Notes: generated by a model not told the origin, from the letters alone. A DNA stretch of 63,898 nt, filler included, from Psammoneis japonica (GCA_008632985.1; 4 parts of 4 records of this genome joined end to end with filler, not necessarily neighbours in it); one strand, 5' to 3'; positions 1 to 63,142 are shown, counted from the first letter of the whole stretch. Made by a program: numbers and translations.

Positions 1-3
1 TCA

Positions 4-858
4 TCCATCAGAATTGGCAAGCAATGGGAGCGTCTCAATGTTTGTCAAGAAACAGAACTTTTGCAAGGACACTTCAAATTGGTCAGGAACTTGGAGAATG
101 GGCAAAAAGAGGCGGCAAAAAGGCAAGTTGACAATCTCAGAAACACGGTGTGTTCGGCTGTTGGGCGGAGGCAATGGCCCGCATGTTGGGTGACCAATGT
201 GTGTGACTCGAGAGTTGCGCGCATCTCGCAAGGAGATGACGGTGATGCTTTGTCTGTGCAGGCGTTGTCGCCAAGGAAGAGGGAAAGGAAAAAGAAAAGA
301 AACTCAAGGCGGGCAGTCAAGAGGAAAAGCAAGGCAGGAAAAAGTCAAGCCGTGACAAGAACGAAAAGAAAGACATCCCGATTGTGCCGACATGGGATCC
401 GCTTGGCCCAGACACTGTCGCTGGCAGCAAACGAAGGAACAAGCAGGCACGCAAGTGGTTCTGTGATCACACCCCTGTTTGCAAAAATTGACAAACCAAG
501 GATTGTGCGGCAATGCAATCATGGATTGGCACATGGCAACAAGGTGGAGGCAGAAATGGTGATAGTGGGCACAGCGAAAAATGGCGCACATGCTGATTCT
601 CAACAAGTTGTCGCGACATTGGCACAGCAAACTTGCAACCAGAGGTTGTGCCTTGTCATTGTGCGACAACAATTTTGTTGCCAACATTTTGACCAATTGC
701 CATCATGGCAAATCCCACACATTTTTAACGTTTCGTGCACTCTGATGCGTGTGTTGTGCACAGCATCATCGCACAGCATTTGTCCAACTCTCCCTCTCAT
801 CGCAGGATGGGTTGTTGCCATGTGGTGCATCTGCGCAGCGGACTTGCGAATTTGACCA
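4..858. repeat. ~855-bp dispersed duplication, copy A (copy B at 5781-6634); degenerate, TpA-depleted, family not identified
   Basis: TCCATCAGA(A/G)TTGGCAAGCAATGGG ... GACTTGC(G/A)AATTTGACCA aligns end to end with 5781-6634, with transitions and small indels. Confidence 0.9.
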
Positions 859-1254
859 GGTTTGGCGACATTCGGTTCTGTGCCTTTCAGTGCTGGCGCA
901 ACTGTTCATTCCTCATTCTGAGGTTTCTCATGTGCGCTGCATCCAAACTGGGTGCCTGCATTGGCGGCAGGTTCACCAGGCTCGTCGGAGTCTTTGGTGC
1001 ATCAGCAGGTTGAGCAGCAGGCTCGGCAACAGCCGCTTTCTTTGCAGCGCGAGTTTCGGCATCAACCGACTCAGCTTCCAAGGACACAGCAGCAGCTTTG
1101 CATTTCTTTTTGGCCTTCTTGGCGTCGTGGAGCTTTTGGACTTGCTCTCACTCGGGACCGTCAAGAGCACTCCGGTCGGAGATGCCCTTCAGAAAGTCAG
1201 AGACCTTCTTGGTCTCGGCCACCTGTTTGTTTGTCTGGGTGATTCTCAAAGGAT

Positions 1255-2745
1255 GTGCGTGTCTCTTTGTCATCTGCTGGAAATTCAGATGACGAAGCCA
1301 CCACTGATTTAGACTCGCACGCTGACACGTGTGCTGTTGGGTCCAATTTTGTGATGTGCTCTGACATCGACAGAACTGTCATGGTGCACCCCCACTCCAA
1401 AGAGCACGCGCCAATGGAAAACACTCCTGTTTGCACGGCTGCTGCCGTGTGGGTTGATCCAACTGATGGACAACCGTGCTTGCTGCCAGTCCACGAGGCC
1501 ATGTTTTTTGGGGACAAGATGACCAACACCCTTCTGTGCCCCAACCAACTGCAAGCAAATGGGCTGATTGTCCACGACACCCCTTGCCAGTTTGATCCGA
1601 CTGGCACGCACTCCATTGCTTTCCCTGACTTGAAGATCAGGGTGCCACTGCGAACAAGAGGCATTGCTTCTGTCTTTGATTCACACGAGCCAACAAATGA
1701 GGATCTGGAGAACCTCCCCCGGCTGGAACTCACATCACCCCCGAGATGGGAGCCTTCTGCTGATGCCATGGTGCAAAAGGAGGAAGCGCGCGCATGTGCC
1801 AGTGTGCGCCAAGGATCAGCAAAGTCGGGCGGATGGTCGACGACAATGAATGTGACCAGGTGTGTTGCTTCCATTCACTCACACCAAATGTCCTGTCATG
1901 ACGAGAGCATCATTGTGGACACTGATGACGACAATTCATTGCATCGCCGCATGGTTGCTCAGGTGAAAGTCTCCCACAACAACACCGAGGGAGACGGGCC
2001 ACACGACCGGCATGACCTGGATGTCCACCTGGATTGTGCCGAGCGGAAACGGGTGCATGCACTGTCAACCTTGAGTCGTGCATCAACTGTCACGCCCGAG
2101 ACACTCTCTAAAAGGTGGAACATTGGCCTGACGGCTGCTGAGAACACCATCAGAGTGATGACCCAGGCAGGGGTCCGCAATGTCTGCACACCATCCGAAT
2201 GGAAAGTCCGGAAGAAAGCCCCTTGGCTCAAGTTCCCTGCTGTCAAGGGACGACTCTGCTCTGACCAGATGTTTTCAAAGGTCAAATCGACACATGGCAA
2301 GATGGGAGGAAGCGCACTTGCCAACGGAAGAGGGTGTGACAGGTTCCATCCTTGGAAGAGGAAACAGGACCACCCAGATGCCGTCACGTCATTTGTGCAT
2401 GACGTTGGCACACCGCAGGTCCTTGTGTCGGATGGCGCACCGGAAATGGCGGAAGGCCAGACCAAGGAGATCTGCAAGGAATGCAGGATGCACCAGGAGG
2501 TGTCCACTCCATGCAGGCCCTGGCAGAACCTGGCCGAGGCATCCATTCGTGAGTTGAAGAAAAGAGTCCATGTGACTCTGCACTGGACTGGTGCTCACAG
2601 ACGACTTTGGTCCCACAGTGCCAAATGGACATGTGACATCCGACGCATGATTGCAGCCAGTGTGTCAGACATGGGAGGACGAGTCCCAGAAGAGGAGGTG
2701 ACAGGTTCAACACCCGACATCTCTTCCCTCTCTCTCTTTGATTGG
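1255..2745 (+). mobile_element. Ty1/Copia (diatom CoDi-type) pol fragment: aspartic protease and integrase, decayed
   Basis: The 497-aa ORF has the LDSHADT protease motif, LLCPNQL, LSKRWNIGL and integrase core (SDQMF, LVSDGAPE, PWQNLAEASIRELK, TGSTPDIS). It contains no Tyr and is cut by the satellite at 2746. Confidence 0.88.
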
Positions 2746-3009
2746 TGAAAACAAACATGTCTTTTCAAGGAAAACAAACATGTCGTTTCAAGGGGAAAAA
2801 AATGTCTTTTCAAGGAAAACAAACATGTCGTTTCAAGGAAAACAAACATGTGTTTTCAAGGAAAACAAACATGTCTTTTCAATGAAAACAAACATGTCAT
2901 TTCAAGGAAAACAAATGTGTCATTTCAAAGAAAACAAACACGTTGTTTCAGGGAAAACAAGCGTGTCATTTCAAGGAAAACAAACGTGTCTTTTCAAGGA
3001 AAACAAACA
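2746..3009 (+). repeat. 23-nt tandem satellite, array 1
   Basis: Unit AAGGAAAACAAACATGTC(T/G)TTTC repeated head to tail; translations cycle every 23 aa (three units). Confidence 0.95.
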
Positions 3010-3058
3010 CCCCACCTCAAACCAAGCAAAAGCAGGCATGGAGCAGCGCCGCCAAAAC

Positions 3059-3405
3059 TTGCAGACAGGCTCAAGTCCCGCTCTGGCACTCAGCTCTCAG
3101 CTTGTGCTCCGCACAAAACCCTCAGACAATGCTTGGCTCCAGCTGGCACCCAGAGGACTCAGTTGAAGAAACTCTGACACAAGAGCAACAGCTCTTTTCC
3201 TTTGATCTTGTTGACATGATCATGTGGAACCATGGAGATGCTGCCGTGCACGCCATCTCTCCTTGATGACCTGTGTTCTCCCTGGCTGGACCTTTCTCAC
3301 CAAACAGTTGCTCGCCGCTGAACAGAGAGCAGCGCGGGTCACATTGTCAAATGTGGGCGCAGCTGAAACACAAATTGGCTCATCTTGTGTGGCCCGCAAG
3401 GCTTG
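3059..3405 (+). mobile_element. Non-LTR retrotransposon (LINE) fragment, inverted copy of ~17607-17936
   Basis: GCAGACAGGCTCAAGTCCCGCTCTGGC...GGCCCGCAAG matches the reverse complement of the post-RT region of the LINE at 17.0-19.3 kb. Confidence 0.75.
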
Positions 3406-3868
3406 AGACCAAAAAAAAACCAAACCCCAATTTTAAGTGCCATTGCACCTTTGCCCAGCAACACCGGCGCCGGCCAACCCACACTTCCAGTGCACCCTGC
3501 GGAGGATGCGGCAGAAATGTGGTGCAGTTGGCCAGTTTCGGCGCCCCCATCAGAGGGCGCCCGGCGGAGACAGCTGCAAATGGCGCGAGCCCGCTTTTTG
3601 CCAGTCGTTTGGCTTCTTTCAGGCTGTCTTTTAGTCTTGGACGGACCACAGAGATCCAGCTTTGGATCCTCGTTGTTGAAAATGACAGTTGTTCTTCGAC
3701 CGAATCCAGCAATGCACCTCTGTCCTTTGCCAAGCATTCTTGTCGTTTGTTGCATGTCGCCATCAGTTTGGCTTCCGCCTTCCTCTGTTGAGATGATTTC
3801 CAAGAATCAACATCATGCCCGTGAACCAACTTGTTGTGCTCTTCCCAAAGTTCCCACCAGCACCTCTG

Positions 3869-5345
3869 CCATGTTTGTTTTCCTTGAAACGACATGTTTG
3901 TTTTCATTGAAAAGACATGTTTGATTTCCTTGAAACGACATGTTTGTTTTCCTTGAAACCACATGTTTGTTTTCCTTGAAAAGACACATTTGTTTTCCTT
4001 GAAACAACATGTTTGTTTTCCTTGAAATGGCGTGTTTGTTTTCCTTGAAACGACATGTTTGTTTTCCTTGAAAACACACATTTGTTTTCCTTGAAACAAC
4101 ATGATTGTTTTCCTTGAAATGGCATGTTTGTTTTCTTTGAAACGACATGTTTATTTTCCTTGAAACGACATGTTTGTTTTCATTGAAAAGACATGTTTGA
4201 TTTCCTTGAAACGACATGTTTGTTTTCCTTGAAACGACATGTTTGTTTTCCTTGAAAAGACACATTTGTTTTCCTTGAAACAACATGTTTGTTTTCCTTG
4301 AAATGGCATGTTTGTTTTCCTTGGCATGTTTGTTTTCTTTGAAACGACGTGTTTATTTCCTTGAAACGACATGTTTGTTTTCATTGAAAAGACATGTTTG
4401 ATTTCCTTGAAACGACATGTTTGTTTTCCTTGAAACAACATGTTTGTTTTCCTTGAAAAGACACACTTGTTTTCCTTGAAACAACATGTTTGTTTTCCTT
4501 GAAACGACATGTTTTTTTTACCTTGAAAAGACACATTTCTTTTCCTTGAAACAACATGTTTGTTTTCTCTGAAATGGCATGTTTGTTTTCCTTGAAACGA
4601 CATGTTTGTTTTCCTTGAAACCACATGTTTGTTTTCCTTGAAATGACACGTTTGTTTTCCTTGAAACGACATGTTTGTTTTCATTGAAAAGACATGTTTG
4701 TTTTCTTTGAAACAAAATGTTTGTTTTCCTTGAAAAGACATGTTTGTTTTCCTTGAAAAGACATGTTTGTTTTCTTTGAAACCACATGTTTGTTTTCCTT
4801 GAAACGACATGTTTGTTTCATTGAAAAGACATGTTTGATTTCCTTGAAACGACATGTTTGTTTTCCTTGAAACGACATGTTTGTTTTCCTTGAAAAGACA
4901 CATTTGTTTTCCTTGAAACAACATGTTTGTTTTCCTTGAAACGACATGTTTGTTTTCCTTGAAAAGACACATTTGTTTTCCTTGAAACAACATGTTTGTT
5001 TTCCGTGAAATGGCGCGTTTGTTTTCCTTGAAATGACATGTTTGTTTTCCTTGAAAACACACAATTGTTTTCCTTGAAACAACATGATTGTTTTCCTTGA
5101 AATGGCACGTTTGTTTTCTTTGAAACGACGTGTTTGTTTTCATTGAAACGACATGTTTGTTTTCCTTGAAAAGACATGTTTGTTTTCCTTGAAACCACAT
5201 GTTTGTTTTCCTTGAAACCACATGTTTGTTTTCCTTGAAATGACACGTTTGTTTTCCTTGAAACGACATGTTTGTTTTCATTTGTTTTCCTTGAATTGAC
5301 ATTTTTTTTTGAAATGACACGTTTGTCTTTCTTAAAACAACATGA
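3869..5345 (-). repeat. 23-nt tandem satellite, array 2 (reverse orientation)
   Basis: Tandem CATGTTTGTTTTCCTTGAAA(CGA/AGA/CCA/TGA) units. Confidence 0.95.
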
Positions 5346-5350
5346 GTTTG

Positions 5351-5607
5351 CCTTGAATTCTGCGCAAGAACGCACTGACGGAAGCAAACCAACATGATTC
5401 CATGTGCAGGAGAACAGCATCTGCACCCCACAAGAAGCTCACGCCTGTCCCCAAGTTCAGTTGGATCCATGAGACTGCAATGTGCAGCAATTTGTGGGGT
5501 TGATCCTCTCCCAGATGAAAATGTGTGACACCTCTGGAGTGCTTGAGCAGCACCCGCAATTGAGCAACTCCTTTTTTGGTGTCTGGCGGTCAAAACCTGC
5601 CACCGCC
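5351..5607 (-). mobile_element. LINE fragment, direct copy of ~17350-17606
   Basis: CCTTGAATTCTG(C/T)GCAAGA...AACATGATTCCATGTGC...CCCAAGTTCAG aligns with 17350 onward; both translate on the minus strand to LHLGEDQPHKLLHIAVS. Confidence 0.8.
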
Positions 5608-5780
5608 AATCCAGCACCACCGGCAAAGAAGAGAAAGAAAAATGAGACTGTTGAGCCAATGAGCCTGAGACTTCAGGCAGTGTTGAAGAGAATGGGCACG
5701 CAGGCAGCGCATGGTGCGCTGAAACCAGAAGTGGAGAAGGTGGCTGGAAATGATCTCTTTTCACAGGTGAAGTTTCTCAG

Positions 5781-6634
5781 TCCATCAGAGTTGGCAAGCA
5801 ATGGGGAGCATCTCAATGTTTGTCAAGAAACAGATTGCTGGTGGCAACATGGACACTTCAAATTGGTCAGGAACTTGAGAGGAATGGGCAAAAAAGGCGG
5901 CAAAAAGGCAAGTTGACAATCTCAGAAACACGGTGTGCTCGGCTGTTGGGGCGGAGGCAATGGCCCGCAAGTTGGGTGACCAATGTGTGTGACTCAAGAG
6001 TTGCGCGCATCTCACAAGAAGATGACGGTGATGCTTTGTCTGTGCAGGCGTTGTCACCAAGGAAGAGGGAAAGGAAAAAGAAAAGAAACTCAAGGCGGCA
6101 GTCAAGAGGAAAAAGCAAGGCAGGAAAAAGTCAAGCCATGACAAGAATGAAAAGAAAGACATCCCGATTGTGCCGACATGGGATCTGCTTGGCCCAGACA
6201 CTGTCGCCGGCAGCAAATGAAGGAACAAGCAGGCGTGCAAGTGGTTCTGTGATCACACCCCTGTTTGCAAAAATTGACAAACCAAGGATTGTGTTTCAAT
6301 GCAATCATGGATTGGCACATGGCAACAAGGTGGAGGCAGAAATGGCGATGTGGGCACAGTGAAAAATGGCGCACATGATTCTCAACAAGTTGTCGTGACA
6401 TTGGCACAGCAAACTTGCAACCAGAGGTTGGCCTGTCATTGTGCGACAACAATTTTTTGCAACATTTTGACAAATTGTCATCATGCAAATCCACACATTT
6501 TTAACATTTCGTGCACTCTGATGCGTGTGTTGTGCACAGCATCATCACACAGCATTTGTCCAACTCTCCCTCTCATCGCAGGATGGGTTGTCGCCATGTG
6601 GCGCATCTGCACAGCGGACTTGCAAATTTGACCA
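5781..6634. repeat. ~855-bp dispersed duplication, copy B
   Basis: Aligns with 4-858. Confidence 0.9.
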
Positions 6635-6865
6635 TGCACTCCCTCTGTCAGGCAGGATGGGTTGGTGCCATGTGGCGCATCCGGCCAAGGGAGGAGTGGG
6701 TTCGAAGCCCAGCCGCCCACCCCGGATGGGGTTGGAAAGGGGCAGGCCAAGAAAGAAAAGGAGGCTTCAATTTGAGGCCAATTCAAGCCAGCAACCTCAG
6801 GAAGCGCAGCACACATTCAGGCATGTGTTGTGAACAGCATCGTCGCACAGCATTTGTCCAACTGA

Positions 6866-8885
6866 ACATGACAGTTTTCCTTGAAAAGACATGTTTGTTT
6901 TCCTTGAAAAGACATGTTTGTTTTCCTTGAAACCACATGTTTGTTTTCCTTGAAGCCACATGTTTGTTTTCCTTGAAATGACACGTTTGTTTTCCTTGAA
7001 AAGACACGCTTGTTTTCCTTGAAACAACATGTTTCTTTTCCTTGAAAAGACATGTTTGTTTTCCTTGAAAAGACATGTTTGTTTTCCTTGAAACCACATG
7101 TTTGTTTTCCCTGAACATGTTTGTTTTCCTTAGAAACACACATTTGTTTTCCTTGAGACGACATGTTTGTTTTCCTTGAGACAACATGTTTGTTTTCCTT
7201 GAAAAGACATGTTTGTTTTCCTTGAAATGACATGTTTGTTTTCCCTGAAACGACATGTTTGTTTTCCTTGAAACCACATGTTTGTTTTCCTTGAAAACAC
7301 ATGTTTGTTTTCCTTAAAACGACATGTTTGTTTTCCTTGAAAAGACATGTTTGTTTTCCTTGAAACCACATGTTTGTTTTCCTTGAAACCACATGTTTGT
7401 TTTCCTTGAAAAGACATGTTTGTTTTCTTTGAAACTGCATGTTTGTTTTTCTTGAAAAGACATGTTTGTTTTTTTTTGAAAAAACATGTTTCTTTTCTGT
7501 GAAACCACATGTTTGTTTTCCCTGAAATGACACGTTTGTTTTCCTTGAAAGGACACGTTTGATTTTCTTGAAAAGACATGTTCGTTTTCCTTGAAAAGAC
7601 ATGCTTGTTTTCCGTGAAATGACATGTTTGTTTTCCTTGAACCACATGTTTGTTTTTCTTGAAAACACATGTTTGTTTTCCTTGAAACGACATGTTTGTT
7701 TTCCTTCAAATGACATGTTTGCTTTCCTTGAAAAGACACCTTTGTTTTCCTTGAAAACACATGTTTCTTTTCCTTGAAACCACGTGTTTGTTTTCCTTGA
7801 AAAGACATGTTTGTTTTCCTTGAAATGACACGTTTGTTTTCCATGAAACAATGTGTTTGTTTTCCTTGAAACAACACGTTTGTTTTCCTTGAAAACACAT
7901 GCTTGTTTTCCTTAAAACGACATGTTTGTTTTCCTTGAAAAAACATGTTTGTTTTCCTTGAAACAACACGTTTGTTTTCCATGAAACGACATGTTTGTTT
8001 TCTTTGAATCCACGTGTTGGTTTTCCTTGAAACGACATGTTTGTTTTCCTTGAAATGACATGTTTGTTTTCATTGAAAAGACATGCTTGTTTTCCTTGAA
8101 AAGACACACTTGTTTTCTTTGAAACGAAACGTTTGTTTTCCTTGAAACGGCATGTTTGTTTTCCTTCAAAAGACATGTTTGTTTTCAAGACATGTTTGTT
8201 TAAAACAAACATGTCTTTTTAATGGCATGTCAGTTTTCCTTGAAACGACATGTTTGTTTTCCTTGAAACCACATGTTTGTTTTCCTTGAAATGACGTGTT
8301 TGTTTTCCTTGAAACGACATGTTTGTTTTCATTGAAAAGACATGTTTGTTTTCATTGAAACGAAATGTTTGTTTTCCTTGAAAAGACATGTTTGTTTTCT
8401 TTGAAACCACATGTTTGTTTTCCTTGAAACGACATGTTTGTTTTCATTGAAAAGACATGTTTGATTTCCTTGAAACGACATGTTTGTTTTCCTTGAAACG
8501 ACATGTTTGTTTTCCTTGAAAAGACACATTTGTTTTCCTTGAAACAACATGTTTGTTTTCCTTGAAACGACATGTTTGTTTTCCTTGAAAAGACACATTT
8601 GTTTTCCTTGAAACAGCATGTTTGTTTTCCTTGAAATGGCGCATTTGTTTTCCTTGAAACAACATGTTTGTTTTTCTTGAAAACACACAATTGTTTTCCC
8701 TGAAACAACATGATTGTTTTCCTTGAAATGGCGCGTTTGTTTTCTTTGAAACGACGTGTTTGTTTTCCTTGAAACGACATGTTTGTTTTTCTTGAAAAGA
8801 CATGTTTGTTTTCCTTGAAACCACATGTTTGTTTTCCTTAAAATGACGCGTTTGTTTTCCTTGAAACGACATGCTTTTTTCCTTG
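6866..8885 (-). repeat. 23-nt tandem satellite, array 3, with a local inversion palindrome at 8187-8217
   Basis: Same unit; AAGACATGTTTGTTT-A-AAACAAACATGTCTT forms 15-bp perfect inverted arms. Confidence 0.95.
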
Positions 8886-9064
8886 GAAGAGGAAACAGGA
8901 CCACCCAGATGCCGTCATGTCATTTGTGCATGACGTTGGCGCACCGCAGGTCCTTGTGTCGGATGGCGCACCGGAAATGGCGGAAGGCCAGACCAAGGAG
9001 ATCTGCAGGGAATGCAGGATGCACCAGGAGGTGTCCACCCCATGCAGCCCCTGGCAGAACCTGG
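8882..9064 (+). mobile_element. Short duplicate of the Copia integrase segment embedded in satellite
   Basis: CCTTGGAAGAGGAAACAGGACCACCCAGATGCC...TGGCAGAACCTGG is nearly identical to 2350-2533 and 9937-10120. Confidence 0.9.
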
Positions 9065-9846
9065 CATGTTTGTTTTCCTTGAAACCACATGTTTGTTTTC
9101 CTTAAAATGACGCGTTTGTTTTCCTTGAAACGACATGTTTGTTTTCATTAAAAAGACATGTTTGTTTTCTTTGAAACGAAATGTTTGTTTTCCTTGAAAA
9201 GACATGTTTGTTTTCCTAGAAAAGACATGTTTGTTTTCTTTGAAACGACATGTTTGTTTTCCTTGAAACGACATGTTTGTTTTCATTGAAAAGACATGTT
9301 TGATTGCCTTGAAACGACATGTTTGTTTTCCTTGAAACAACATGTTTGTTTTCCTTGAAAAGACATGTTTGTTTTCATTGAAAAGACATGTTTGATTTCC
9401 TTGAAACGACATAAAGACATGTTTGTTTTCTTTGAAACAAAATGTTTGTTTTCCTTGAAAAGACATGTTTGTTTTCTTTGAAACGACATGTTTGTTTTCC
9501 TTGAAACGACATGTTTGTTTTCTCTGAAACCACATGTTTGTTTTCCCTGAAACAACACATTTGTTTTCCTTGAAAAGAAACGTTTGTTTTCCATGAAAAG
9601 ACGTGTTTGTTTTCCTTGAAAAGACATGCTTGTTTTCTTTGAAACCACACATTTGTTTTCCTTGAAACGACATGTTTGTTTTCATTGAAAAGACATGTTT
9701 GATTTCCTTGAAACGACATGTTTGTTTTCCTTGAAACAACATGTTTGTTTTCCTTGAAATGACATGTTTGTTTTCCTTGAAACCACATGTTTGTTTTCCT
9801 TAAAATGACGTGTTTGTTTTCCTTGAAACGACATGTTTTTTTCCTT
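9064..9846 (-). repeat. 23-nt tandem satellite, array 4
   Basis: Same unit, reverse orientation. Confidence 0.95.
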
Positions 9847-11555
9847 GGAAGAGGAGACAGGACCACCCAGATGCCGTCATGTCATTTGTGGGAGGAAGCG
9901 CACTTGCCAACGGAAGAGGGTGTGACAGGTTCCATCCTTGGAAGAGGAAACAGGACCACCCAGATGCCGTCATGTCATTTGTGCATGACGTTGGCGCACC
10001 GCAGGTCCTTGTGTCAGATGGCGTGCTGGAAATGGCGGAAGGCCAGTCCAAGGAGATCTGCAGGGAATGCAGGATGCACCAGGAGGTGTCCACCCAATGC
10101 AGCCCCTGGCAGAACCTGGCCGAGGCATCCATTTGTGAGTTGAAGAAAAGAGTCCGTGTGACTCTGCGCCGGACTGGCGCTCACAGACGACTTTGGTCCC
10201 ACAGCGCCAAATGGACATGTGACATCCGACGCATGATTGCAGCCTGTGTGTCAGACGTGGGAGGACGAGTCCCAGAAGAGGAGGTGACAGGTTCAACACC
10301 CGACATCTCTTCCCTCTCTCTCTTTGATTGGCGTCAACCTGTGCATTGCTGCGTGCCTGTGGTGGAGTTCCCACACGAAAAAAAGTGCGTTGGCCATTGG
10401 CTTGGCGCAGCAGACAACTGCACTGATGAAATGGCATTCATTGTTTTGCCCGAATCAGGCAAACCCATCATTCGGAAGGATGTGTGGGCCATGCCGGAGG
10501 ATGACCTTAAAACTCCGGTGATCCAGACGGATCTTGCATCGGTCGACCAAGCTTTGATCAAACGGCTCAGCACCCCGGAAAAGGGCGCCAGCGCTGACTT
10601 CCCTGAACTCCCTGATGACTTCATGGACGAATGGGACGATGCCGTTGAACCTGTGGAACCCGACGCTTCCAAACCGGAAGCTGATGAGCACACCCTGGAA
10701 GGGCTGGATGAATGTCTCACAGCTCAAGTCATGTCACCACGAGGAGGCGAGCTGACTCATGCTGGGGTCATTGCACACAAGTGAGAATGGTGACGGGGTT
10801 CCTGTTGGCACTGGGAACGACTTGAGGACATGCAACGTGGAATTCCCTGATGGATCCACCGACTCCCATGCTGCTGACACAATTGCAGAGAACCCATTCA
10901 CTCAGATCAACTCTGAAGGGAATGCCCGCCAGATCATGAAGGAAACAGTCGATCACTGACGTGATGCCCGTTGCAGTGTGCATGCAGACAAAAGGTTGTT
11001 TTTGTCACAACCTTTGTGACATTTAAATTGCAACACGTCGCCGTGATGCATTGGCTCTTGTCAGCAGCTGCGCACTGCACTTCTCCCCATGTGTCGCGCG
11101 TCCATGCGGCACTTGGCTGACGTGCACTGACACTGCACGGTTTTGGCGGAACAGTGTGGGTGCGTGCGAAGGAACACACAGAACTGCACAGAGTTTTGCG
11201 CGCTCGACAGTGATCAACGTTGCTGCGGACAACTCCCGCTCAGAGTTTCGAACCCCTGGCCTCCTGCCCAATGGTTGCGATGAACCACTCCGCCAAAAAT
11301 TCATGATGCAGCATGCATGCAGACAAAAGGTTGTTTTTGTCACGACCTTTGTGACATTTAAATTGCAGCACGTTGCCGTGATGCATCAACTCTCATTGGC
11401 AGCTGCACATTGCACCGTGCTGCAACGGCCAATGACGGGTGCACAACGACCAAGACTGGCAGGCGCGCTCCTGGGAGGACGACTGCAGGCTGGGACCTGC
11501 GAGTCGAATGGAAGGATGGGGCTGCATCCTGGGTTCCTCTTAAGGATTTGAAGTC
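9843..11555 (+). mobile_element. Second copy of the Copia integrase region, extending to a chromo-like segment; interrupted by a TRIM
   Basis: 9888-10330 duplicates ~2305-2745, then continues GHWLGAADNC...IIRKDV...AADTIAENPFTQINSEG...ETVDH and, after the insert, RTTAGWDLRVEWKDGAASWVPLKDLK. Confidence 0.85.
10972..11414 (-). mobile_element. TRIM-like non-autonomous LTR element (443 bp): two 108-bp LTRs (10972-11079, 11307-11414), 4-bp target-site duplication CCGT
   Basis: Direct repeats with TG...CA ends; CCGT at 10968-10971 and 11415-11418; removing the element restores the host frame GAT GCC CGT GCT; minus-strand polypurine tract ATGGGGAGAAG (11090-11080) abuts the left LTR; weak PBS candidate TGGCGGAGTGG (11295-11285). 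Confidence 0.85.
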
Positions 11556-13005
11556 AAAGAAAACAAACATGTCTTTTCAAGGAAAACAAACGTGTCATTT
11601 CAAGGAAAACAAACGTGCGGTTTCAAGGAAAACAAACACATGGTTTCAAGGAAAACAAACATGTCTTTTCAAGGAAAACAAACGTGTTGTTTCAAGGAAA
11701 ACAAATGTGTGTTTTCAAGGAAAACAAACATGTGGTTTCCAGGAAAGCAAACATGTCATTTCATGGAAAACAAGCATGTCTTTTCAAAGAAAACAAACAT
11801 GTCTTTTCAAGGAAAACAAACGTGTTATTTCAAGGAAAACAAACGTGTCGTTTCAAGGAAAACAAACATGTCTTTTCAAGGAAAACAAACATGTTTTTTC
11901 AAGGAAAACAAACATGTCTTTTCAAGGAAAACAAATGTGTTGTTTCAGGGAAAACAAACATGTGGTTTCAGAGAAAACAAACATGTCTTTTCAAGGAAAA
12001 CAAACATGTCGTTTCAAGAAAAACAAACGTGTCGTTTCAAAGAAAACAAACATGTCTTTTCAAGGAAAACAAACGTGTCTTTTCAAGGAAAACAAATGTG
12101 TCATTTCAGGGAAAACAAACATGTCGTTTAAAGACAAACATGTTGTTTCAAAGAAAACAAACACATCTTTTCAAGGAAAACAAACGTGTCGTTTCAAGAA
12201 AAACAAACGTGTCGTTTCAAGGAAAACAAACACATCTTTTCAGAGAAAACCAAGGTGTCATTTCAAGAAAAACAAACGTGTGGTTTCAAGGAAAACAAAC
12301 GTGTCATTTCAAGGAAAACAAACATGTCTTTTCGAGGAAAACAAACATGTCTTTTCAAGGAAAACAAACATGTCATTTCAAGGAAAACAAGCGTGTCTTT
12401 TCAGAGAAAACAAACGTGTCATTTCAAGAAAAACAAACATGTCGTTTCAAGGAAAACAGACATGTCTTGAAAACAAACATGTCGTTTCAAGGAAAACAAA
12501 CATGCGTTTTCAAGGAAAACAAACGTGTCGTTTCAAGGAAAACCAATGTGTCTTTTCAAGGAAAACAAACATGTCTTTTCAAGGAAAACAAACATGTCGT
12601 TTCAGGGAAAACAAATGTGTCGTTTCAAGGAAAACAAACGTGTCGTTTCAAGGAAAGCAAACATGCATTTTCAAGGAAAACATGTGGTTTCAAGGAAAAC
12701 AAACATGTGGTTTCAAGGAAAGCAAACATGCAGTTTCATGGAAAACAAGCATGTCTTTTCAAGGAAAACAAACACGTCTTTTCAAGAAAAACAAACGTGT
12801 CTTTTCAAGGAAAACAAATGTGTTGTTTCAAGGAAAACAAACATGTGGTTTCAGAGAAAACAAACATGTCTTTTCGAGGAAAACAAACATGTCGTTTCAA
12901 GAAAAACAAACGTGTTGTTTCAAAGAAAACAAACATGTCTTTTCAAGGAAAACAAATGTGACGTTTCAAGGAAAACAAACATGGCTTTTCAAGAAAAACA
13001 AACAT
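11556..13005 (+). repeat. 23-nt tandem satellite, array 5
   Basis: Same unit, forward orientation. Confidence 0.95.
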
Positions 13006-15992
13006 GGATGACAGTGCTTGGCAGTTTTGACTTGGTGAGCAGATGGTGCCATCCATCCGCACACCTTGCAAAGTTGTCCCGATCATCTGCCGATTCAACG
13101 ACAAGACCATGTGGTCCGGGTGTCGACAATTGTTCAGGTGAAGTCTCAACAGCCCGTTGTTTCCATCTCAATGATTTTGTTTTGTCCCGTGCAATCTTCT
13201 GGCACAACAAAAAGCAATCGTTGTCCAGCTGCTTGGAAAATGGTTCCCAAAATTCAGAAAGGCCATGACGATGCATCTGTTGCATCACACAGTTTTGGTG
13301 ATGAAGATTGGATGGGCCGCAGGCAACATCAGACCATGTCTCCTCTTTAGGAAGTGCAGCCGGCACATTCTCATCAACCTGGCTTGTGTTTGTTGTGCCG
13401 GTTTGTTCATTGGATGGCTCAACAGGCTCAGTGTCCTCATCTTGGGTTCACTTTCTGACGATTCGGTCAATTGTTCATCTTGTTGCTTCTTTCCTTTAAA
13501 GCCATCAGCCGTCTTTTTCTTTTTGCTGTCAAAGGATTTATCGCACCTTTTTTCCAGCAGTTTTCTGCCAGCGTGTGTGTGACCAATGATTGCAAGTGCG
13601 AGAAGCTTTCCCATCTTTTTGTCACACGCAAGTTGACTGAGTGTGGAAAGTCCCCCGTCAACTTGAATTCGCGGGCAGTCACATCTCTGACCTGGATGAC
13701 AATGGGATGTGCAGAATGACTCAGATGCAATCCGGTTGCATTCCTCTTTCTGTTTGGTGGACATCTCTCCAATGATTGCCTCCATCATTTGAGGGACAAT
13801 GCCAGCCTCCAATGCATGCATCATGTCAGCAACGGTCATGCCAAATGCACCACGTGGGTTGTCGCCCATGTCAAGTGGAAAGTGAGCATTGTCCACTGTG
13901 TGCTGTCCAAACACTTTTCTCAAAATTTTGGAGCATGCAGTCATTCGGCGAATGAGGGATGAAGCCAGCTCAGTCTCAGCCTTTTTTTTGATGTCATTGT
14001 GCGATTTTTTCAGGAAACGCTTTTAACATGCTGGTGCCAACGGCTGTTGTCATCCTCTGGATCCGGGCCCAATGCAGCTGCAGCGAGCAACTCTGTGAAA
14101 GCTTGGTCAAAAAATTGGCAGACATGGCTCTTCCACAAATGCGTTCTTGATTGAGGATGTCCCCCAACAGGGAGTTGCAATGCATCACAGCTCTGACATG
14201 GCGGCATTGAGTGCCTGTTGTTGCACGAACAATGGGTGGATTTGCCTGGCAATGAAGCAGACCATGGAGAACCTCCTTGAGAATGCGGTGACAGTTGGCA
14301 ACAACAAGGCACCCAAGCTTGTCTTTCTTGTCCAAATTGGGTGTGAATCCAAGTGGACGCCAACAGCGACAGTCACGGCATGCTTCCTCTTGAATCATGG
14401 TGAGTGAGTGCATTGCAGGCTCCATCCCGTGAGGATTGACCGCATCAACTCCGGTCTTGTCCAAGTGATTGACAAGGTGAGCGTGAAAATCTGATGCCGT
14501 TTCCTTGGTGTTGGAGCAACGTTGTTGCCACTCGCCGTCACCCATGTCTTGACTTTGAGTGGACAATCACCAGTCACCAGGACAATCCGGGAACGACATC
14601 TCAACACCGTCAGCCTGGCCAGCGCTGGGATCCAAATCGCCGTCAGTGGGGGGTGGCACACAAGGTGACCAGACATCATTTGGATTGACCTGCAACTTGG
14701 AAAGATCACGGAACACTGGCTTGGTGAAGAGATCCTGCAAGGTCTCAGTGAAACTGCAAAGCGGAAAAGGTGGGGAGCGACGACATTTGGGTCCACCCTT
14801 CTGTTGCTGTGTTGGATTGTCACATTCTAGCATCACAGCAGCAGTGTGGGGGAGAGGAACATTGGGAAATGACCCCAGGAGTTGCTTCATCGCCACGGCG
14901 GTCGTGATGGGTGGCTTTGTCAAATCCAGTCTTTTTTCTGCATGCTCTTCATGCAAAATTCTCACCACTTTGTCAATGAAGTCAATTGCAACACCTGACC
15001 GACGACACAAATGCAGCAAACGCACCATGGGTGCAATGCTGGGTGAGCAGACTGGAGGCACATCAAAATCCTCATCGGGTGCGACATCACGTGGTGGGCC
15101 AAGAGGGTTGTGTTGATCGAGGGAGGAAACAGGATCTTCTGTCGGACGGGAAATTGAGGGGGGGGCCACAACTGCCATCGCAATGGTCGGCTCCAATGAA
15201 CTCAGGAACATCCACAGGACTGTCCTCTCCAAGGGCAGACACACCATCATCTGCAAACAAAACAAATCGGTGGGCATTTTGGGAGGCTGCACTGGCGGCA
15301 GCAGCGTTGGCGGCTGAACGCAATTGACCAGAGCGTCTGACGGAGGGTGGGCGCAGCCCGCTTCTGGCAGAGGGAGGACAAGCTGGAGAAGAATTGTCTG
15401 TTGGTGTGGGAGGAGATGGAGCTGGATTCCAAAGGACTTCGGGGAGGGGAGGAGGGGGTTCGTCATCGGAGAAACCAAACCCAGCAGGATCATCATGGTC
15501 GTCCAGTGACTCATCATCTGGAGGGGGAAGTGCATTGGTGGCAGCAGAAGATGCCGCATGCAGGCGAAGGGACATTTCCTCCTTTTCGCGGCAGGGCAAG
15601 CACTTCTGTAGATGAAGGGCGATGTTGGAAAAGGGGACACGGCAATGGGGGCATTTGGGTTTGTTGGTGTTGGATCCAAGGGAGCCGACGGAGGCGGAAT
15701 CCAGAGGATGAGAGGAAAGAGGTGTTCTGCCGGATGAAGAAGACAACTGGGTTGTGTGGCGCAGCTGTGTCAATGGGGGATGGAGACCAGATGATGCGGT
15801 GCAGCGCCAAGACAGGTGACACTGCACATTGTTTTCAGAGTCAAATCCACGTTGTCCACAACAAGGACAACCAAAAGACTTGGTGGAAATGGCAGAACGG
15901 AGGCAGTCAGTTGCAATGTGCCTGCTGAGGCCACGTTCGGAAAAGAAACCGGCTTGTTTGCACCGTGGACAAACAAGACCATCAGATGACAT
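13006..15992 (-). mobile_element. Decayed Plavaka-like DNA transposase with N-terminal C2H2-like zinc fingers
   Basis: Frameshifted ORFs give CPRC..LSRH and CPCC..CH fingers, LQDLF..PVF..LQVNP, LDKTG, WRPLGFTPNL, LLGD..ERICGR and ADMMHALEAG, which match my recollection of Plavaka-type transposases. Confidence 0.6.
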
Positions 15993-16435
15993 GGCCGATG
16001 CACACAGATGAAGGAGTTGAGAAGAGAGTCAAAAGGAAACAGTGGGTGCAGCAACAATCACTTGGGGACACAGTGAGGGCAGAAACACAGAGACACAACG
16101 TGCGGATGGATGGGAAGGAAGGATGGAATGGGCAGGGAGAGAAAATTGAGAAGACAATTAAAGTCTAGATTGACGGACACAGGCAGCGATTTTGATCCAG
16201 AAAGTTGATCAACGCACAATCCAGAAACCAAAATGGAGCCAAACACGCACACAAGGCTTGTCAGATGGGGGAGCAAATGGCTGGATTGAGGAACACAGAT
16301 GTTTGTTGTTGAGCATTTCAGAAAAGCTGACTTGACAAATCAGCACGATCTTGGATTGAAGGGAGAAAATGTCGGGTTTTGTTTCAAGAAATCTTGACGG
16401 CCAGTGAGACACCTGGATTGTTGGTGTCCCAGATG

Positions 16436-17037
16436 ATGCTTGTTTTCCCAAAAAAGACATGTTTGTTTTCTTTGAAACAACATGTTTGTTTTTCCTTAAA
16501 AGAACATGTTTGTTTTCCTTGAAACAACACGTTTGTTTTTGTTGAAACGACGTGTTTCTTTTCCTTGAAATGACATGTTTCTTTTCCTTGAAAAGACACG
16601 TTTGTTTTTCTTAAAAACATGTGTTTGTTTTCCTTGAAATGACACGTTTGTTTCCTTGAAAACACACGTTTGTTTTCCTGGAAACAACATGTTTGTTTTC
16701 CTTGAAAAGACATGTTTGTTTTCCCAAAAAAAGACATGTTTGTTTTCTTTGAAACGACATGTTTGTTTTTCTTTAAAAGAACATGTTTGTTTTCCTTGAA
16801 AGAACATGTTTGTTTTCCTTGAAATGACATGTTTGTTTTCCTTGAAATGACATGTTTGTTTTTCCTTGCAACAACTTGTTTGTTTTCCTTGCAACAACTC
16901 ATTTGTTTTCCTTGCAACAACTTGTTCTTCGATTTCTTTGAAAGAACATGTTTGTTTTCCTTGAAATGTTTGTTTTTCTTGAAGTGGCGTGTTTGTTTTC
17001 CTTGAAATGACATGTTTGGTTTCATTGAAATGACATC
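16436..17037 (-). repeat. 23-nt tandem satellite, array 6 (more diverged)
   Basis: Same unit, reverse orientation. Confidence 0.92.
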
Positions 17038-19270
17038 ACAAGAAAGAAAGCGCAGAACTTTCTCCACACTGCCCAGGCTCTTGTTCCTCGTTTCTGCTGC
17101 TCAATGTTGTTCAAAGTGCCGGCGCCACTCGGGAGCAAAGGATCTCCTGCCATCTTTGCAGCATCCAATGTCAAGGCATCTGCCAGAGCAACATCAGACA
17201 TGGGCAACACCTGCAGGTGCAAATGACAACAATTGGTCCATCGGACCTCGCACTGAGAAAAGAGTTGGGGCTGGAGTGCAGCATCCATGATGCACTGGTT
17301 GTTGTCTCATTGGAGAGGGAGGGCTCCAGAGTGTGTCAGGCAAACTTTCCCTTGAATTCTGTGCAAGAGTGCACTGACAGAAGCAAACCAACATGATTCC
17401 ATGTGCGGGAGAACAGCATCTGCGTCCCACAAGAAGCCCCCGCCTGTCCCCAAGTTCAGCTGGACACATGAGACTGCAATGTGCAGCAACTTGTGAGGTT
17501 GGTCCTCTCCCAGATGAAGATGTGTGACACCTCTGGAATGCTTGAGCAGCGTTTGCAATTGAGCAACTCCTTGTTTGATGTCTGGCAATCGAAAACCGCC
17601 ACAGCCAAGAGCTTGTGGACCACACAAGATGAGTTGTTTTGTGCTTCAGTTGCACCCACATTTGGCAAATGTGACCCTTGTTGCTTTCTGTTGAGCGGCA
17701 AGCAACTCTTCAGGGAGAAAGGTCAAGTCAGTGAGAACACAGGTCATTGAGGAGAGATGACATGCATGGCAGCATCTCTGTGTTTCCGCATGTTCAAGTG
17801 GACAAGATCGCTCTTGTGTTGGAGTTTCTTCAACAGAGTTTTCTGGGCACCAATTGGAGCCAAGCAGTGTCCAAGGGTTTTGTGCAGAGCACAAGCTGAG
17901 AGTTGAGCGCCAGAGCAGGACTTGGGCCTGTCCGCAGAGAAAATTTTGCCGCCAAGGTCTTCATGGTGAGGGTGAATGCATGGCTCTCCGCACTCAGTGA
18001 AATCCCGCTCAACAGTGTGGAAAGAACACTTTGGCAGCTCAAGTTCATGCCCAGCTGCACCCAGCAAATCACACCAGAGTTGATTGTCCTGTTGTAAAAA
18101 AAAAGGACAGATCAAATGCCAAAGGTTGAGGACTTGCTTGGAAGTCATTGACTTGTTTGGACGCATCATCTGCACATCCTCGATCAAAGACTTGGATGCA
18201 AAATTGGCCATCAGGGGTTTCAAAATGAGCTCCAACCGCTCTGGCATCAAAAATGTCAAAAAAATGGCTGCAGAGGGTGTTCCAATGCCACAGGGAATTT
18301 CCGCCACCTTGCCCTGTGCCGCACAGAGGCAAATCTTCTGTGTGGGAACAACTCAGCTGGGCTGAGCCCAACAGGGTTTGCAGCCAGTGCCTGGCATGAT
18401 GCAGAGTGCCCATGTTGACTTCAACAACTTGCGAGTGCATGCCGTTGCTCCAAGAGCAAAGTTCGACCAGCGTGGGAATGTTTCTGTCAAAGCAAGAGGT
18501 GCAATCATCATCGCTCATCAGCATTGTCTTTTGAGAAGCACACGACATTTCTGACATCAAGTTCTCAAGAAACACAAAAGTCTGGGTAGAAAGGAATGAG
18601 TGGCATCCACAAATGCCGGGATTGCACATCCAGCGGTGCTCCATTTGCTGTGCCAATTCTTGCCATTTTGCACTCGTGATGATTTGATGGTCTGCTTTGC
18701 ACACGTGTGTGACCCGCAGTTGATGGATTTTGTTGTTCCCTGGTTCTTTAAAGATCATCATGTTGACAATGTCTTTCCAATGGTGTGCGAGCATCCCCAC
18801 TTCAAAGCACAGTCAACGAGGTGAAGCCGTGTCGCAAATGAGGTTTGCTGTGCCTGGCCCAGGTGCAGTTTGGTTGGAGTCAGATTTCCTTGAGCGTCTT
18901 GATCTTTGGAGTGTGAATGAGGGGCATGCAGAGCCTTCCAATGGCCAAGATGTGGTCCTGATTTCAGCAAGGCAGATGTTGATTCAGGCCATGTCTTCAA
19001 TTTAGACAACAAAGTGGTGGGAGACAAAGAATTGCTCACAGCTGGAGGTGTGCATTGACGGAGGTGCTGGACAAGCAACGAGGCAGCAAGATTCAATTGA
19101 CTGGTGTCATGTTCCCCATTCAACATCAGCTCTGCCATGATGGTGTTCCCTTCATGCCCCAAGTCCACGGACAGGGGAGGACAGCAGGAGGTGCACCTTT
19201 GGCCTGTCCAAAATGATGTTGACTCTGTGTCTGAAGTGCTGCTGCTGCATCCTCTGGAGTGTCTGCTGTC
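17038..19270 (-). mobile_element. Decayed non-LTR retrotransposon (diatom Ambal-like LINE), reverse transcriptase region
   Basis: MIFKEPGNNKIHQLRVTHVCKADH, DDDCTSCFDR, GTGQGGGNS and GCADD correspond to non-LTR RT motifs; many frameshifts. Confidence 0.75.
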
Positions 19271-20033
19271 ATCCAATGTTTGCATGTCTTGGATTGTCTT
19301 GAGGATTGGCTGGCACTTGAATGGTCTTGATGCTTGAATCTGCTTTCTCCTTGCAAGCGTCAATCTTTCGGAGCACTCTCTTTGTCTCCTGCTTCGCACA
19401 TTGCAGTTTGCAGTGGAGACTGCTGTTGGATGAAAACACGCCAAGATCCAGCAGCCGGTTTGTGTGGCTGTTCTTCAGTCTTCCAGCCTTCCATGCTTGC
19501 TTTTGCGTGTCCAACCAATGTCCAAGTCTCTCTCCATTTTCAATGTGAAATGGGGCACTTTTCAGCTTCTCTTGTGCAAAACGAAAAAATTTGAGAAGAG
19601 AAAACACAGTTTCTCAATGCTCAGCCAGAATGTCCCAATTGGCTCAGGCCTTTTTCAGTTGTTCCTGTTGAGAAGCGTCAATTTTCCTTTTCCTTGTGGC
19701 ACCCCGTTGGTCATTTGGCCATTTTCCAAAGTTCTCCCCATCCTCTTTGTGGCCCCTTGGCATGTTGCAATGTCCCTCCCATTTTGTGAATTGCTTGAGA
19801 AGAGAGGGCATTGTGCCCCATTGATTTTCCCACAAGAGCCACTCAACACTGGCCTCCTCAAGTTTTTCTTCTTTTTCAATGCCGAGCTTGCTGAGCTTGT
19901 GTTTTGTGGCCATTGGTTGTCCAACCAAATTCCAAGAGCAAAGCCATCCAGCACATTTGCTGGGAACATTGCATCTGCCTTCTCTCTCCAAGCAAACCAA
20001 GAGCAGGCTGCAAGCACAACACGGCCAATTTCA
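19270..20033 (-). pseudogene. Helicase-associated (HA) domain repeat gene relic
   Basis: Tandem W..M..LL..F...EGHCN.P....DGE..GKW...QR and LGHWLDTQKQAWKAG.L....NRLLDLG units; frameshifted and TpA-depleted. Confidence 0.7.
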
Positions 20034-20133
20034 NNNNNNNNNNNNNNNNNNNNNNNNNNNNNNNNNNNNNNNNNNNNTTAATTAATTAANNNNNNNNNNN
20101 NNNNNNNNNNNNNNNNNNNNNNNNNNNNNNNNN
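20034..20133. other. Artificial contig linker
   Basis: 44 N + TTAATTAATTAA (stops in all six frames) + 44 N. Confidence 0.98.
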
Positions 20134-21086
20134 GATTTTTTGTGAGAAAGAAGCGGCACACACACAGTCTCAAGCAATGGCTGTGATTGCTGTTGAGACC
20201 CTTTCCCACAATGATTTTTCTGGATGGCTTGACCCTACTTGCTTGTGAGGAAAAGCACCATCCCACAGAAGCATGAGTGTTCACAAAGAAGAAGACGGCA
20301 GGGTGGATGTGGCAGCTGCTGCCAAGATTGACCGCAAGGCACGCACCAACCACCATGGCGGCTCTCATTGCAGAGTGCTTGGAAAAAATCAATGCTGCAA
20401 ATCTTGGAAAAGAAAGTGGACTTTTGCAAAATGGTCATCAGTTCACAGACTGTCATTTTTGCAGGAGCTCCCCGGCAGAGTGTGGAGCAAGGTGGCAGGT
20501 GACAAGACATGCAGCATGAAAGCATTGCATCACACCTCCTTTTGTTTCATTTGAGTTGCTTGCACATGACAAAGCTCCTAAACCAGCCCAAGATTAGTGG
20601 AGCTGGTCCTGCCTGTTCCCACTGACCCAAGGTGGAGGATCATGTTGTGGGTGCTGTCAGGAAATTGTTGTGCTGTCCAAGTGAATTGTCTGCATGCTGG
20701 TGCATCCTCTCTTCAGTCCCCATTTGCTGCTGTGGACCAAGTGGGTTGTGATGACACCAAACAGAGCATTTCAAGAGACTTGGGCACTCAATGTCACAGC
20801 AACCAGACTGTCTCTACAGAGCTTGTGAATTGCTGATTGCTTGCAGTTAGGCTTAGCTGGAGCAACACCCCCTTGTTGCACGCGCACTCATAGCCTACTG
20901 CATTCATCCCGACAACACTACGAGCATCTAACAAGGTGGCAGCTATATGTAGCTTCTATTCTTACCGATCAGTCCCTCGCCATGTGGGTTGAGGCTCTCT
21001 ACAACTACGCTGCTGCAAAAATAAATTGATCTGACTAACATTCTTGTGTGTCACTATTGGAGTTGCCTCCACTGTCGTTTTGAATG

Positions 21087-22174
21087 TCAAGACCCTCGTC
21101 TTGTGCCAGCATGCGCTCGGGCCCAATCCGGAATCGGCAGGTCAAGCATAATGTAATCAATGGATAGATATTCCAACGCTCGCCGCAGAGACGCAGGAGT
21201 GTAGTATTCCTGGAGATGTTTCGCAGCAGCGGTTTCGGTACCACAGTTTATTTTTGTCTCGCTTTGTTTGCGTTTCAGTGAAAAGACCTGTTCCAGTGCC
21301 ACCTTCATGTCATCACCAAATTGATCGCCCAATCGCGACAAGTCTTTGTAAAAGTTTGTACCCATGTGCCCAACAAAGTCATATTTTTGTATTCTGCGGT
21401 ACAAACCATCACAGTAAAAGCTCATTGGGACAAAGTGAACGTCCCATTTGAGTGGAAGGGCATCAACATGGGCATGAAACAGGAGTTTCTTGTCGTGAGC
21501 AATATTTTTGAGATGCTCGCTGTGACTTGCATTGTGAAAGATTGGTGTCGGCTTGCAATAATATGTATTCAGATTCCCCCTGTAGCACTTGTCAATGTGA
21601 GCCGATAGCAATCGCTCGAGTGGATCACGCAAAAAGACAAAACGTGGATTGGAAGTTTTGTACATGTCGTCTGCGGAGTACTCTGGAGGATAACAGGATT
21701 GCGGCCGATGGGTTTCGTTGTTGAGTGCACAAAAGATCTTTCGCCATTGTGTCGTTCCGATCTTTTCAATACTGCACATGCGAATGTCTGGTGACGCTTG
21801 ATAATGCCAGGCTCCTTCCAACCCGATTCCTCTTATACTATCTCGAAGGAGCGTGCTTGTCCACCAAGGCAGTGATGACAAGCTACTGCTATTGTTTTCA
21901 TCCAGCATGCGCTTGAAACAAGTCTTTTGCTGTTCCTCCTCTCGACAGTCCCACATGGAAAACAATTTTTTGTACGTCTTGTCATAGCTTTACGAATCCA
22001 GTCCGAAGCCAACGGAGTGGAAGAAACGTTATTTTCCTTTACGTGATGCTCTAAATGCCAATAATGTTGATCTGACATTTTGTTCATGGCATAAAAATTG
22101 AAAAAGATGCCGCACAAAGCTGCACCAGCAATGACAAGCGTGAGGGGAGGAAAAGCGATAGCTACTTTCGGCAT
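21087..22174 (-). CDS. Type II membrane carbohydrate sulfotransferase (Sulfotransfer_2/CHST-like), with one frameshift near 21990
   Basis: N-terminal TM anchor (LTLVIAGAALCGIFFNFYAM) in ORF 21833-22174; PAPS-binding motifs CSIEKIGTTQWRK and FVFLRDPLERLLSA plus HFVPMSFYC and YDFVG in ORF 21087-21965. The frames join if one A is added to CGTAAAGC, probably a homopolymer error. Confidence 0.8.

Positions 22175-63106: not shown

Positions 63107-63110
<4 letters not shown>

Positions 63111-63142
<32 letters not shown>

Follow-up and report, generated by a model that had tools for sequence, protein, structure and literature searches.

Fungal repeat-induced point mutation (RIP) turns CpA and TpG into TpA and leaves the affected DNA AT-rich. 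We find the reverse in a 63,898-base stretch of DNA from a probably diatom-like host (hereafter the window), where blocks of repeat DNA, among them a dead Ty1/copia element and a 23-bp satellite, have lost nearly all TpA to TpG and CpA, while genes and ribosomal DNA (rDNA) are ordinary. The closest described system is that of the rhizarian alga Bigelowiella natans (Mettrop et al., bioRxiv 10.64898/2026.01.13.699255). In its mutation-accumulation lines, an integrated region of nucleocytoplasmic large DNA virus (NCLDV) origin and a virophage region are reported to account for 231 of the 302 nuclear mutations; 230 of these are A>G or T>C, and every A>G or T>C change lies at TpA. The preprint also reports 324 low-TpA coding sequences enriched in reverse transcriptase and DDE domains, and its authors suggest that the enzyme is a DNA deaminase of ADAT2-like type; the available text nowhere uses the words diatom, stramenopile, satellite or retrotransposon (bioRxiv 10.64898/2026.01.13.699255). 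From full-text literature searches we judge this preprint to be the only description of such a process, whereas an earlier reading of the window's sequence alone (the sequence-only reading) knew of none.

The window shares with B. natans, as far as the available passages of the preprint go, A:T>G:C change at TpA only, giving TpG or CpA according to strand, confined to foreign or selfish DNA in an otherwise ordinary genome and visible in the long term as TpA depletion with CpA and TpG enrichment; other dinucleotide contexts stay at background and the host genes are ordinary. What the window adds is a different host lineage, other targets and a depletion that has gone to saturation. The host is diatom-like rather than a chlorarachniophyte, the targets are the Copia element, the satellite and unclassified repeats rather than NCLDV or virophage inserts, and the observed/expected ratio (O/E) of TpA falls to 0.03, compared with 0.45 in the B. 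natans NCLDV region; NCLDV or virophage targets were not found, and a scan of viral contigs with the neighboring asparagine (Asn) synthase returned no relative. The preprint reports de novo mutations in culture lines, whereas we read an accumulated footprint from sequence alone. RIP resembles the window in making single-dinucleotide transitions copy by copy on duplicated or selfish DNA, in sharp domains and to the ruin of coding capacity, but the direction is opposite: here TpA becomes TpG or CpA and GC rises, with TpA O/E at 0.03 and TG and CA raised in place of C:G>T:A at CpA with a rise of TpA, and the host is diatom-like, whereas RIP works premeiotically in fungi through the RID/DIM-2 cytosine-methyltransferase machinery. 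APOBEC3 and ADAR enzymes likewise leave deaminase-type transitions in genomic retroelement copies, but they act before integration on complementary DNA (cDNA) or RNA and on one strand, whereas both strands, and satellites, are affected here. CpG decay through 5-methylcytosine deamination yields the same TG and CA products and co-occurs in the older blocks (CpG O/E 0.12–0.52), yet is separable, as the Copia element has lost 79% of its conserved TA against 2 of 30 conserved CG.

The depletion of TpA in the repeats is real and strong. Six depleted blocks together hold 115 TpA where 2629 are expected from base composition: 43 of 1492 (O/E 0.03) in 1–20033, where O/E is 0.00–0.08 in all 40 windows of 500 nt between 1 and 20000; 5 of 47 in 20134–20850; 11 of 135 (O/E 0.08) in 31620–33787; 15 of 587 (O/E 0.03) in 38303–47080; 35 of 231 in the Copia element, 56483–61700; and 6 of 137 in 61714–63898. 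The sequence-only reading had listed 1–20033 and approximately 20134–20850, 31620–33787, 38303–47080 and 61850–63898, all borne out by these counts, and had missed the Copia element; its tallies of four TpA in 1–2745 (at 563, 726, 1310 and 2109) and of 11 in the host coding sequence 23461–23760 are reproduced exactly on recounting. A further tract on its list, 56150–56382, does lack TpA over its 233 nt, but it is CT-rich with only 16 A, which makes it weak evidence (86 C and 85 T; it lies downstream of the 28S gene). TG and CA are enriched in the depleted blocks (O/E 1.3–2.1), and the blocks end abruptly, within about 100 bp. Genes and rDNA are normal, as had been claimed, with TpA O/E of 0.57 and 0.46 in genes, 0.76 in the rDNA spacer and 0.86 in the rDNA; the spared Asn synthase keeps three of four conserved tyrosines and 174 of 190 conserved residues. 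Since TAA and TAG are nearly gone (13 TAA, 9 TAG and 296 TGA in non-satellite contig 1), long open reading frames (ORFs) accumulate, and the pile-up described earlier is apparent in that 23 of 40 stop-to-stop ORFs of at least 200 aa lie in 1–20081.

The Copia element (56483–61700, plus strand; TpA O/E 0.15, CpG O/E 0.93) offers the clearest view of what was lost. We assign it to Ty1/copia on the sequence of its reverse transcriptase (RVT_2 domain, E 2.7e-24) and polyprotein homology; flanking long terminal repeats (LTRs) and a single intact ORF were not found, as self-BLAST gives no LTR pair, the contig end cuts off the 5' end, and the two ORFs, 56732–60109 and 60040–61683, overlap in different frames. 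Homologues number 1930 proteins at E≤1e-10, and the 120 listed are 55–76% identical, many approximately 1900 aa long, and all contain 3.1–5.0% Tyr. The 76 that are full-length average 3.8% Tyr and 0.9% Cys, compared with 0.4–0.7% Tyr and 3.5–4.0% Cys in the window copy. Alignment with 40 full-length homologues gives 36 Tyr columns conserved in at least 80% of them, at which the window copy carries 6 Tyr, 18 Cys, 8 His and 4 other residues, so the proposed erasure of Tyr is found as conserved Tyr turned to Cys or His at 26 of 36 positions; by comparison, 623 of 697 conserved non-Tyr columns are kept, and 629 of all 733 columns are identical. Tyr codons and TAA/TAG stops have thus been lost, killing the elements. 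Active family members equally free of TpA and Tyr had been named as evidence that would speak against hypermutation, and the intact relatives are normal, both in Tyr and in TpA (O/E 0.5–1.0).

The direction of change was read from 49 DNA loci of the Copia family, taken from metagenome contigs and anchored codon by codon, a dinucleotide counting as conserved when 70% or more of the 46 undepleted loci have it in common. At 33 conserved TA sites the window Copia has 7 TA, 17 TG, 6 CA and 3 TT, while of the other conserved dinucleotides it retains 669 of 768, with CG intact at 28 of 30 sites (Fisher p=1.7e-16 against TA); retention of these other dinucleotides is 0.83–0.94 in most control loci, as in the window copy. 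Of 48 loci scored at eight or more conserved TA sites, 45 keep 61–100% of their TA. Because CG and the other dinucleotides are kept, the change is TA to TG or CA, specific to TpA and separate from CpG decay. This polarized comparison supports the earlier proposal of A-to-G change at TpA on either strand of repeat DNA, in the form of TA to TG (17) and TA to CA (6), and likewise the predicted TpA context of the substitution spectrum. GC content is correspondingly 58% in the window Copia and 39–55% across the 49 family loci.

Little further sequence preference is discernible around the converted sites. Polarized hit rates by 3' neighbor are 11/22 for T, 16/36 for C, 19/42 for G and 10/32 for A (pyrimidine vs purine p=0.48), the choice between TG and CA shows no significant dependence on the preceding base (p=0.33), and trinucleotide-conserved sites, at n=241, are too few. 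TpA that survives outside the satellites is found in TTAA in 18 of 54 cases, compared with 7.3% expected, with one ATAN and two NTAT, a hint that TAA sites are converted more slowly. T>C before G was considered as a part of the signature and rejected, as it occurs in control loci as well (e.g., 11/27 in L001).

The same signature appears in DNA and protein records that are independent of the window assembly. Three metagenome loci, only about 62% identical to the window Copia, have lost conserved TA in the same manner: L028 keeps 1 of 19, with 8 TG and 8 CA; L029 keeps 2 of 19, with 9 TG and 6 CA; and L015 keeps 12 of 27, with 9 TG and 5 CA. Their whole-locus TpA O/E is 0.27, 0.13 and 0.31, respectively, and their CpG O/E is 0.74–0.80. 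Among the best 150 cluster representatives from a library of 1.84 billion proteins, four have less than 1.5% Tyr and 3–6% Cys, and these carry Cys or His at 8/10, 12/14, 5/8 and 5/8 conserved Tyr columns. Four others were checked: P0272 is partly converted (4 Tyr, 5 Cys and 3 His of 13), P0252 and P0262 keep 19/20 and 14/15, and P0269 keeps 10/16, with none of its six changes to Cys or His. L028 and L029, from two assemblies of one accession series, are 94.8% identical, and their 93 mismatched positions comprise 40 that form 20 TG/CA doubles, 26 with TA opposite TG or CA, 8 with CG opposite TG or CA, and 19 others. As most mismatches sit at former TpA sites, the two would have been about 98% identical before conversion, and since they resolved the same TA sites differently, conversion acts on each copy separately. 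The 26 sites at which one of the pair still has TA look like a process in progress.

The satellite and the duplicated segments of contig 1 bear on timing. The 23-bp satellite holds 20 TpA in the 6766 nt of its five arrays (O/E 0.03), and TpA arising later is still purged: transitions that would make TpA occur at 10 of 708 sites, against 62 of 454 for non-CpG C>T at positions 13–14, in variants that spread by amplification and whose counts are not independent events. Elsewhere in the satellite unit, T>C at position 3 converts CATG to CACG and creates a CpG in 29 of 194 units, CpG positions 21 and 22 have decayed by 19–25%, and the T-run positions 6, 7, 10 and 11 are almost invariant. Four duplicated segments within contig 1 differ mainly by CG/TG (27) and CG/CA (26); these duplicates were already free of TpA when copied. 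The Copia element, with CpG O/E 0.93 beside TpA O/E 0.15, indicates that TpA conversion is faster than CpG decay. Repetition alone is not the trigger, because the tandem rDNA and its spacer are spared (O/E 0.86 and 0.76), and the description "repeat-targeted" in the sequence-only reading is therefore too broad.

We propose that the TpA-free blocks would be the accumulated footprint of DNA-level hypermutation, A:T to G:C at self-complementary TpA, where a hit on the top-strand A would give TpG and one on the bottom-strand A would give CpA. In a diatom-like nuclear genome this hypermutation would act on silenced transposons and satellites and leave genes and rDNA alone. It would run copy by copy following insertion or duplication, outpace CpG decay and erase TpA that arises later; it would be of the same kind as the TpA hypermutation caught in real time in B. 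natans. As to chemistry, a TadA/ADAT2-like deaminase may turn adenine into hypoxanthine, steered by chromatin state or small RNA. The natural substrate of TadA/ADAT2 enzymes, tRNA A34, follows U33, and so deamination of this type fits the need for a 5' T. We consider targeted TpA hypermutation, most likely by adenine deamination, to be the probable explanation of the window as a whole; we infer both a function in defense and the adenine chemistry. On the broader proposition we are evenly divided: that TpA hypermutation could be a widespread genome-defense system of the SAR group, present in diatoms too, which saturates transposons and satellites copy by copy after insertion and before CpG decay while sparing rDNA, and that a chromatin-targeted adenine or thymine base editor would act on nuclear DNA as a mirror of fungal RIP.

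Several points weigh against this account. TpA is self-complementary, and attack on A or on T yields the same products. As noted, satellite variants spread by amplification. The Logan contig of run X1 that spans 29812–34019, i.e., the 2.2-kb depleted block at 31620–33787 and both its flanks, differs from the window at 2 of 4208 letters with even depth, and run X1 may be the window's source sample, so that this checks the assembly rather than replicating it independently. Finally, 34003–35811 has a summed contig depth in X1 of 690–1155, compared with 55–64 in its flanks (a quantity that is not copy number), and normal TpA (O/E 0.4–0.8); if it is a true host multi-copy element, not all repeats are targeted. 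Three ORFs within 33914–35871 have no Pfam match.

The palindromic nature of TpA allows thymine to be the base attacked: a TET/JBP-type dioxygenase would oxidize T at TpA in silenced DNA to 5-hydroxymethyluracil (5hmU) or 5-formyluracil (5fU), which would pair with G and give T>C, so that the strand attacked would carry CpA and its complement TpG, the same products as from adenine deamination. 5-Formyluracil mispairs with G. In dinoflagellates, which also belong to SAR, 5hmU takes the place of T with a preference for TA and TC, and most of its loci lie in transposable elements, which it silences (PMC11572971). This is a base modification with a TA/TC preference in the transposable elements of a SAR protist; the passages available describe it as an epigenetic silencing mark and report no mutational footprint (PMC11572971). 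T>C hypermutation driven by 5hmU is not described in the literature examined, and the preference for TC is not seen, as TC O/E is 0.8–1.15 across the depleted blocks. We think thymine oxidation unlikely, although it is the main rival.

A second alternative places the change in RNA: retroelement transcripts would undergo ADAR-like or TAD2/3-like A-to-I editing, preferentially where the A follows a U, and the edited copies would then be reverse-transcribed and integrated. The Discussion of the B. natans preprint notes that ADAR favors a 5' U (bioRxiv 10.64898/2026.01.13.699255), and we do find a modest coding-strand excess of TG over CA, at 17:6 in the window (binomial p=0.035) and, when the four hypermutated copies are taken together, at 43:25 (p=0.038); raw TG:CA counts per kb are uninformative. 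Editing of the sense strand cannot yield CA, however, and CA accounts for 6 of the 23 conversions in the window copy and for 8 of 16 in L028. The change is thus limited neither to the sense strand nor to retroelements: depletion is just as deep in the 23-bp satellite and in repeats that defy classification, and new TpA in the satellite is purged in place. Because TG and CA occur in one copy, i.e., on both strands, and satellites that were never RNA are just as free of TpA, we conclude that the process is not at the RNA level and regard editing before integration as very improbable.

Nor do we find it credible, beyond a slight chance, that the depletion is an artefact, either of base calling or assembly or of heterochromatic adenine or thymine in a modified form that polymerases misread. 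Since no sequencing platform is recorded and the runs come from one sample, perhaps the source, there is some room for such an error. A misread on both strands would give TG or CA strand by strand, and assemblers would disagree; instead, the X1 contig differs at 2 of 4208 letters. Depletion ends sharply at block edges and leaves CG unaffected, and the same signature is found in L015, L028 and L029, in the four Tyr-poor representatives of the best 150 and, in part, in P0272. Over 20136–20882 the X1 contig differs at seven positions, two of which are T>C at the residual TpA 20595 and 20848. Contigs of run X2 leave 31591–33399 almost uncovered, with a single joint 31423/31750 that has a 22-letter side, from which we draw no inference. 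That the elements avoid TpA themselves, e.g., because of a nuclease that cuts UpA/TpA, or come from a TpA-poor donor, is scarcely plausible: TpA is mildly under-represented in most genomes, including the window's genes (O/E 0.46–0.57), but conserved catalytic-domain Tyr turned to Cys or His and a broken polyprotein frame are decay rather than adaptation, intact relatives are normal in Tyr and in TpA (O/E 0.5–1.0), and non-coding satellites are affected as well.

If targeted TpA hypermutation is the correct reading, a phenomenon of one chlorarachniophyte extends to the diatoms, which are distant from it and ecologically dominant, its targets come to include ordinary transposons and satellites besides integrated viruses, and saturation is possible. 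With two unrelated hosts, the responsible enzyme could be approached by looking for deaminase or dioxygenase genes that are common to genomes whose repeats lack TpA and missing from the others; for base editing, an enzyme found in nature that converts A:T to G:C at chromosomal TpA would be of interest. TpA-free DNA also misleads gene calling, since it yields spurious long ORFs and pseudo-proteins devoid of Tyr, and proteins of this type are already present in public collections.

The host is probably diatom-like and not Bigelowiella. The 5' part of the window 18S looks, we presume, ochrophyte. In the Atlas, the clusters closest to the Copia reverse transcriptase carry the label Bacillariophyta, with few members of known phylum. 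The diatom V4 primer DIV4rev3 (PMC6896584) matches the window 18S exactly at 50563–50584, and two Cercozoa-specific primers (PMC12993544) show three and two mismatches, in each case including the 3'-terminal base of the primer. Among named organisms, the Asn synthase is closest to proteins of two Thalassiosira species, 877-aa fusions of an Asn synthase and an N-acetyltransferase in the same domain order as in the window; the second window ORF aligns to residues 431–876 of one of them at 47% identity. These two ORFs (23223–26059, plus strand; Asn synthase and arylamine N-acetyltransferase) overlap in different frames and correspond to the single 876–877-aa Thalassiosira fusions, at 45% and 47% identity to P0137; the two-frame state is either a frameshift or short intron, or a real split. 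A viral origin of contig 2 was considered, as the Atlas places the Asn synthase nearest to clusters of giant-virus (NCLDV-like) type, and rejected, as the viral-contig scan gave no relative and Thalassiosira is closest.

The window consists of four contigs joined by linkers of the form N44-TTAATTAATTAA-N44 at 20034–20133, 38203–38302 and 56383–56482, across which neighborhood is meaningless. Each linker contributes three artificial TpA, and those at 20079–20087 belong to the linker rather than to a contig. Contig 1 (1–20033) is entirely TpA-depleted repeat DNA with CpG O/E 0.52 outside satellites, and contains the five satellite arrays, dispersed duplicates detected by self-BLAST, a degenerate integrase-like ORF and an ORF with an HA domain. 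The arrays share a common unit and lie at 2747–3009 (minus strand), 3870–5344 (plus), 6874–9847 (plus; approximately 129 units, 79% matches), 11554–13006 (minus, inverted in orientation) and 16436–17036 (plus). The ORF at 1243–2745 (plus strand), described earlier as a 497-aa Copia ORF without Tyr, does have 0 Tyr, with 17 Cys and 26 His, but only its part 2233–2745 is Copia-like, a degenerate integrase remnant (blastx E 2e-10 to 3e-15, 27–33% identity), and a Pfam search of the ORF gave no match. A fragment at 9885–10478 duplicates part of this region, and divergence makes the Tyr-column test unworkable on the integrase-like fragments of contig 1, which have 5 and 6 Tyr columns and keep only 31–40% of other conserved residues. 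The helicase-associated domain (HA, PF03457; E 3.1e-10) is encoded at 19647–20030 on the minus strand, within TpA-free DNA. A Pfam search of 90 six-frame ORFs from the depleted blocks raised only RVT_2 and HA above noise.

Contig 2 begins with the TpA-poor block 20134–20850, which ends at a sharp boundary near 20850, and continues into a spared region of host genes, 20900–31600 (TpA O/E 0.57). Its genes are intron-less and encode a sulfotransferase, the Asn synthase followed by the arylamine N-acetyltransferase, a GT2/GTP-cyclohydrolase II protein and a DUF5898 kinase-like protein. The 2.2-kb block at 31620–33787 is foreign, TpA-depleted and CpG-poor, sits between normal genes with edges sharp to 100 bp or less, and has no terminal inverted repeat, LTR, target-site duplication or Pfam domain that we could find. 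On contig 3, the oldest-looking block, 38303–47234 (TpA O/E 0.03, CpG O/E 0.12), has no coding capacity recognizable by Pfam on six-frame ORFs and adjoins the rDNA spacer, which with a complete 18S-5.8S-28S rDNA occupies 47240–55617 (plus strand), spared and tandemly repeated. On contig 4, an older repeat (61714–63898; TpA O/E 0.04, CpG O/E 0.26) adjoins the Copia element. The DUF5898 kinase-like ORF (35953–38250, plus strand, 765 aa) has nine relatives at E≤1e-5 and 35–43% identity, none from a named organism, and the protein collection contains no self-match. Just outside the TpA-free 2.2-kb block, and in marked contrast to it, 33789–33990 is dense in CTAG, in GCTAGC-like words and in CpG.

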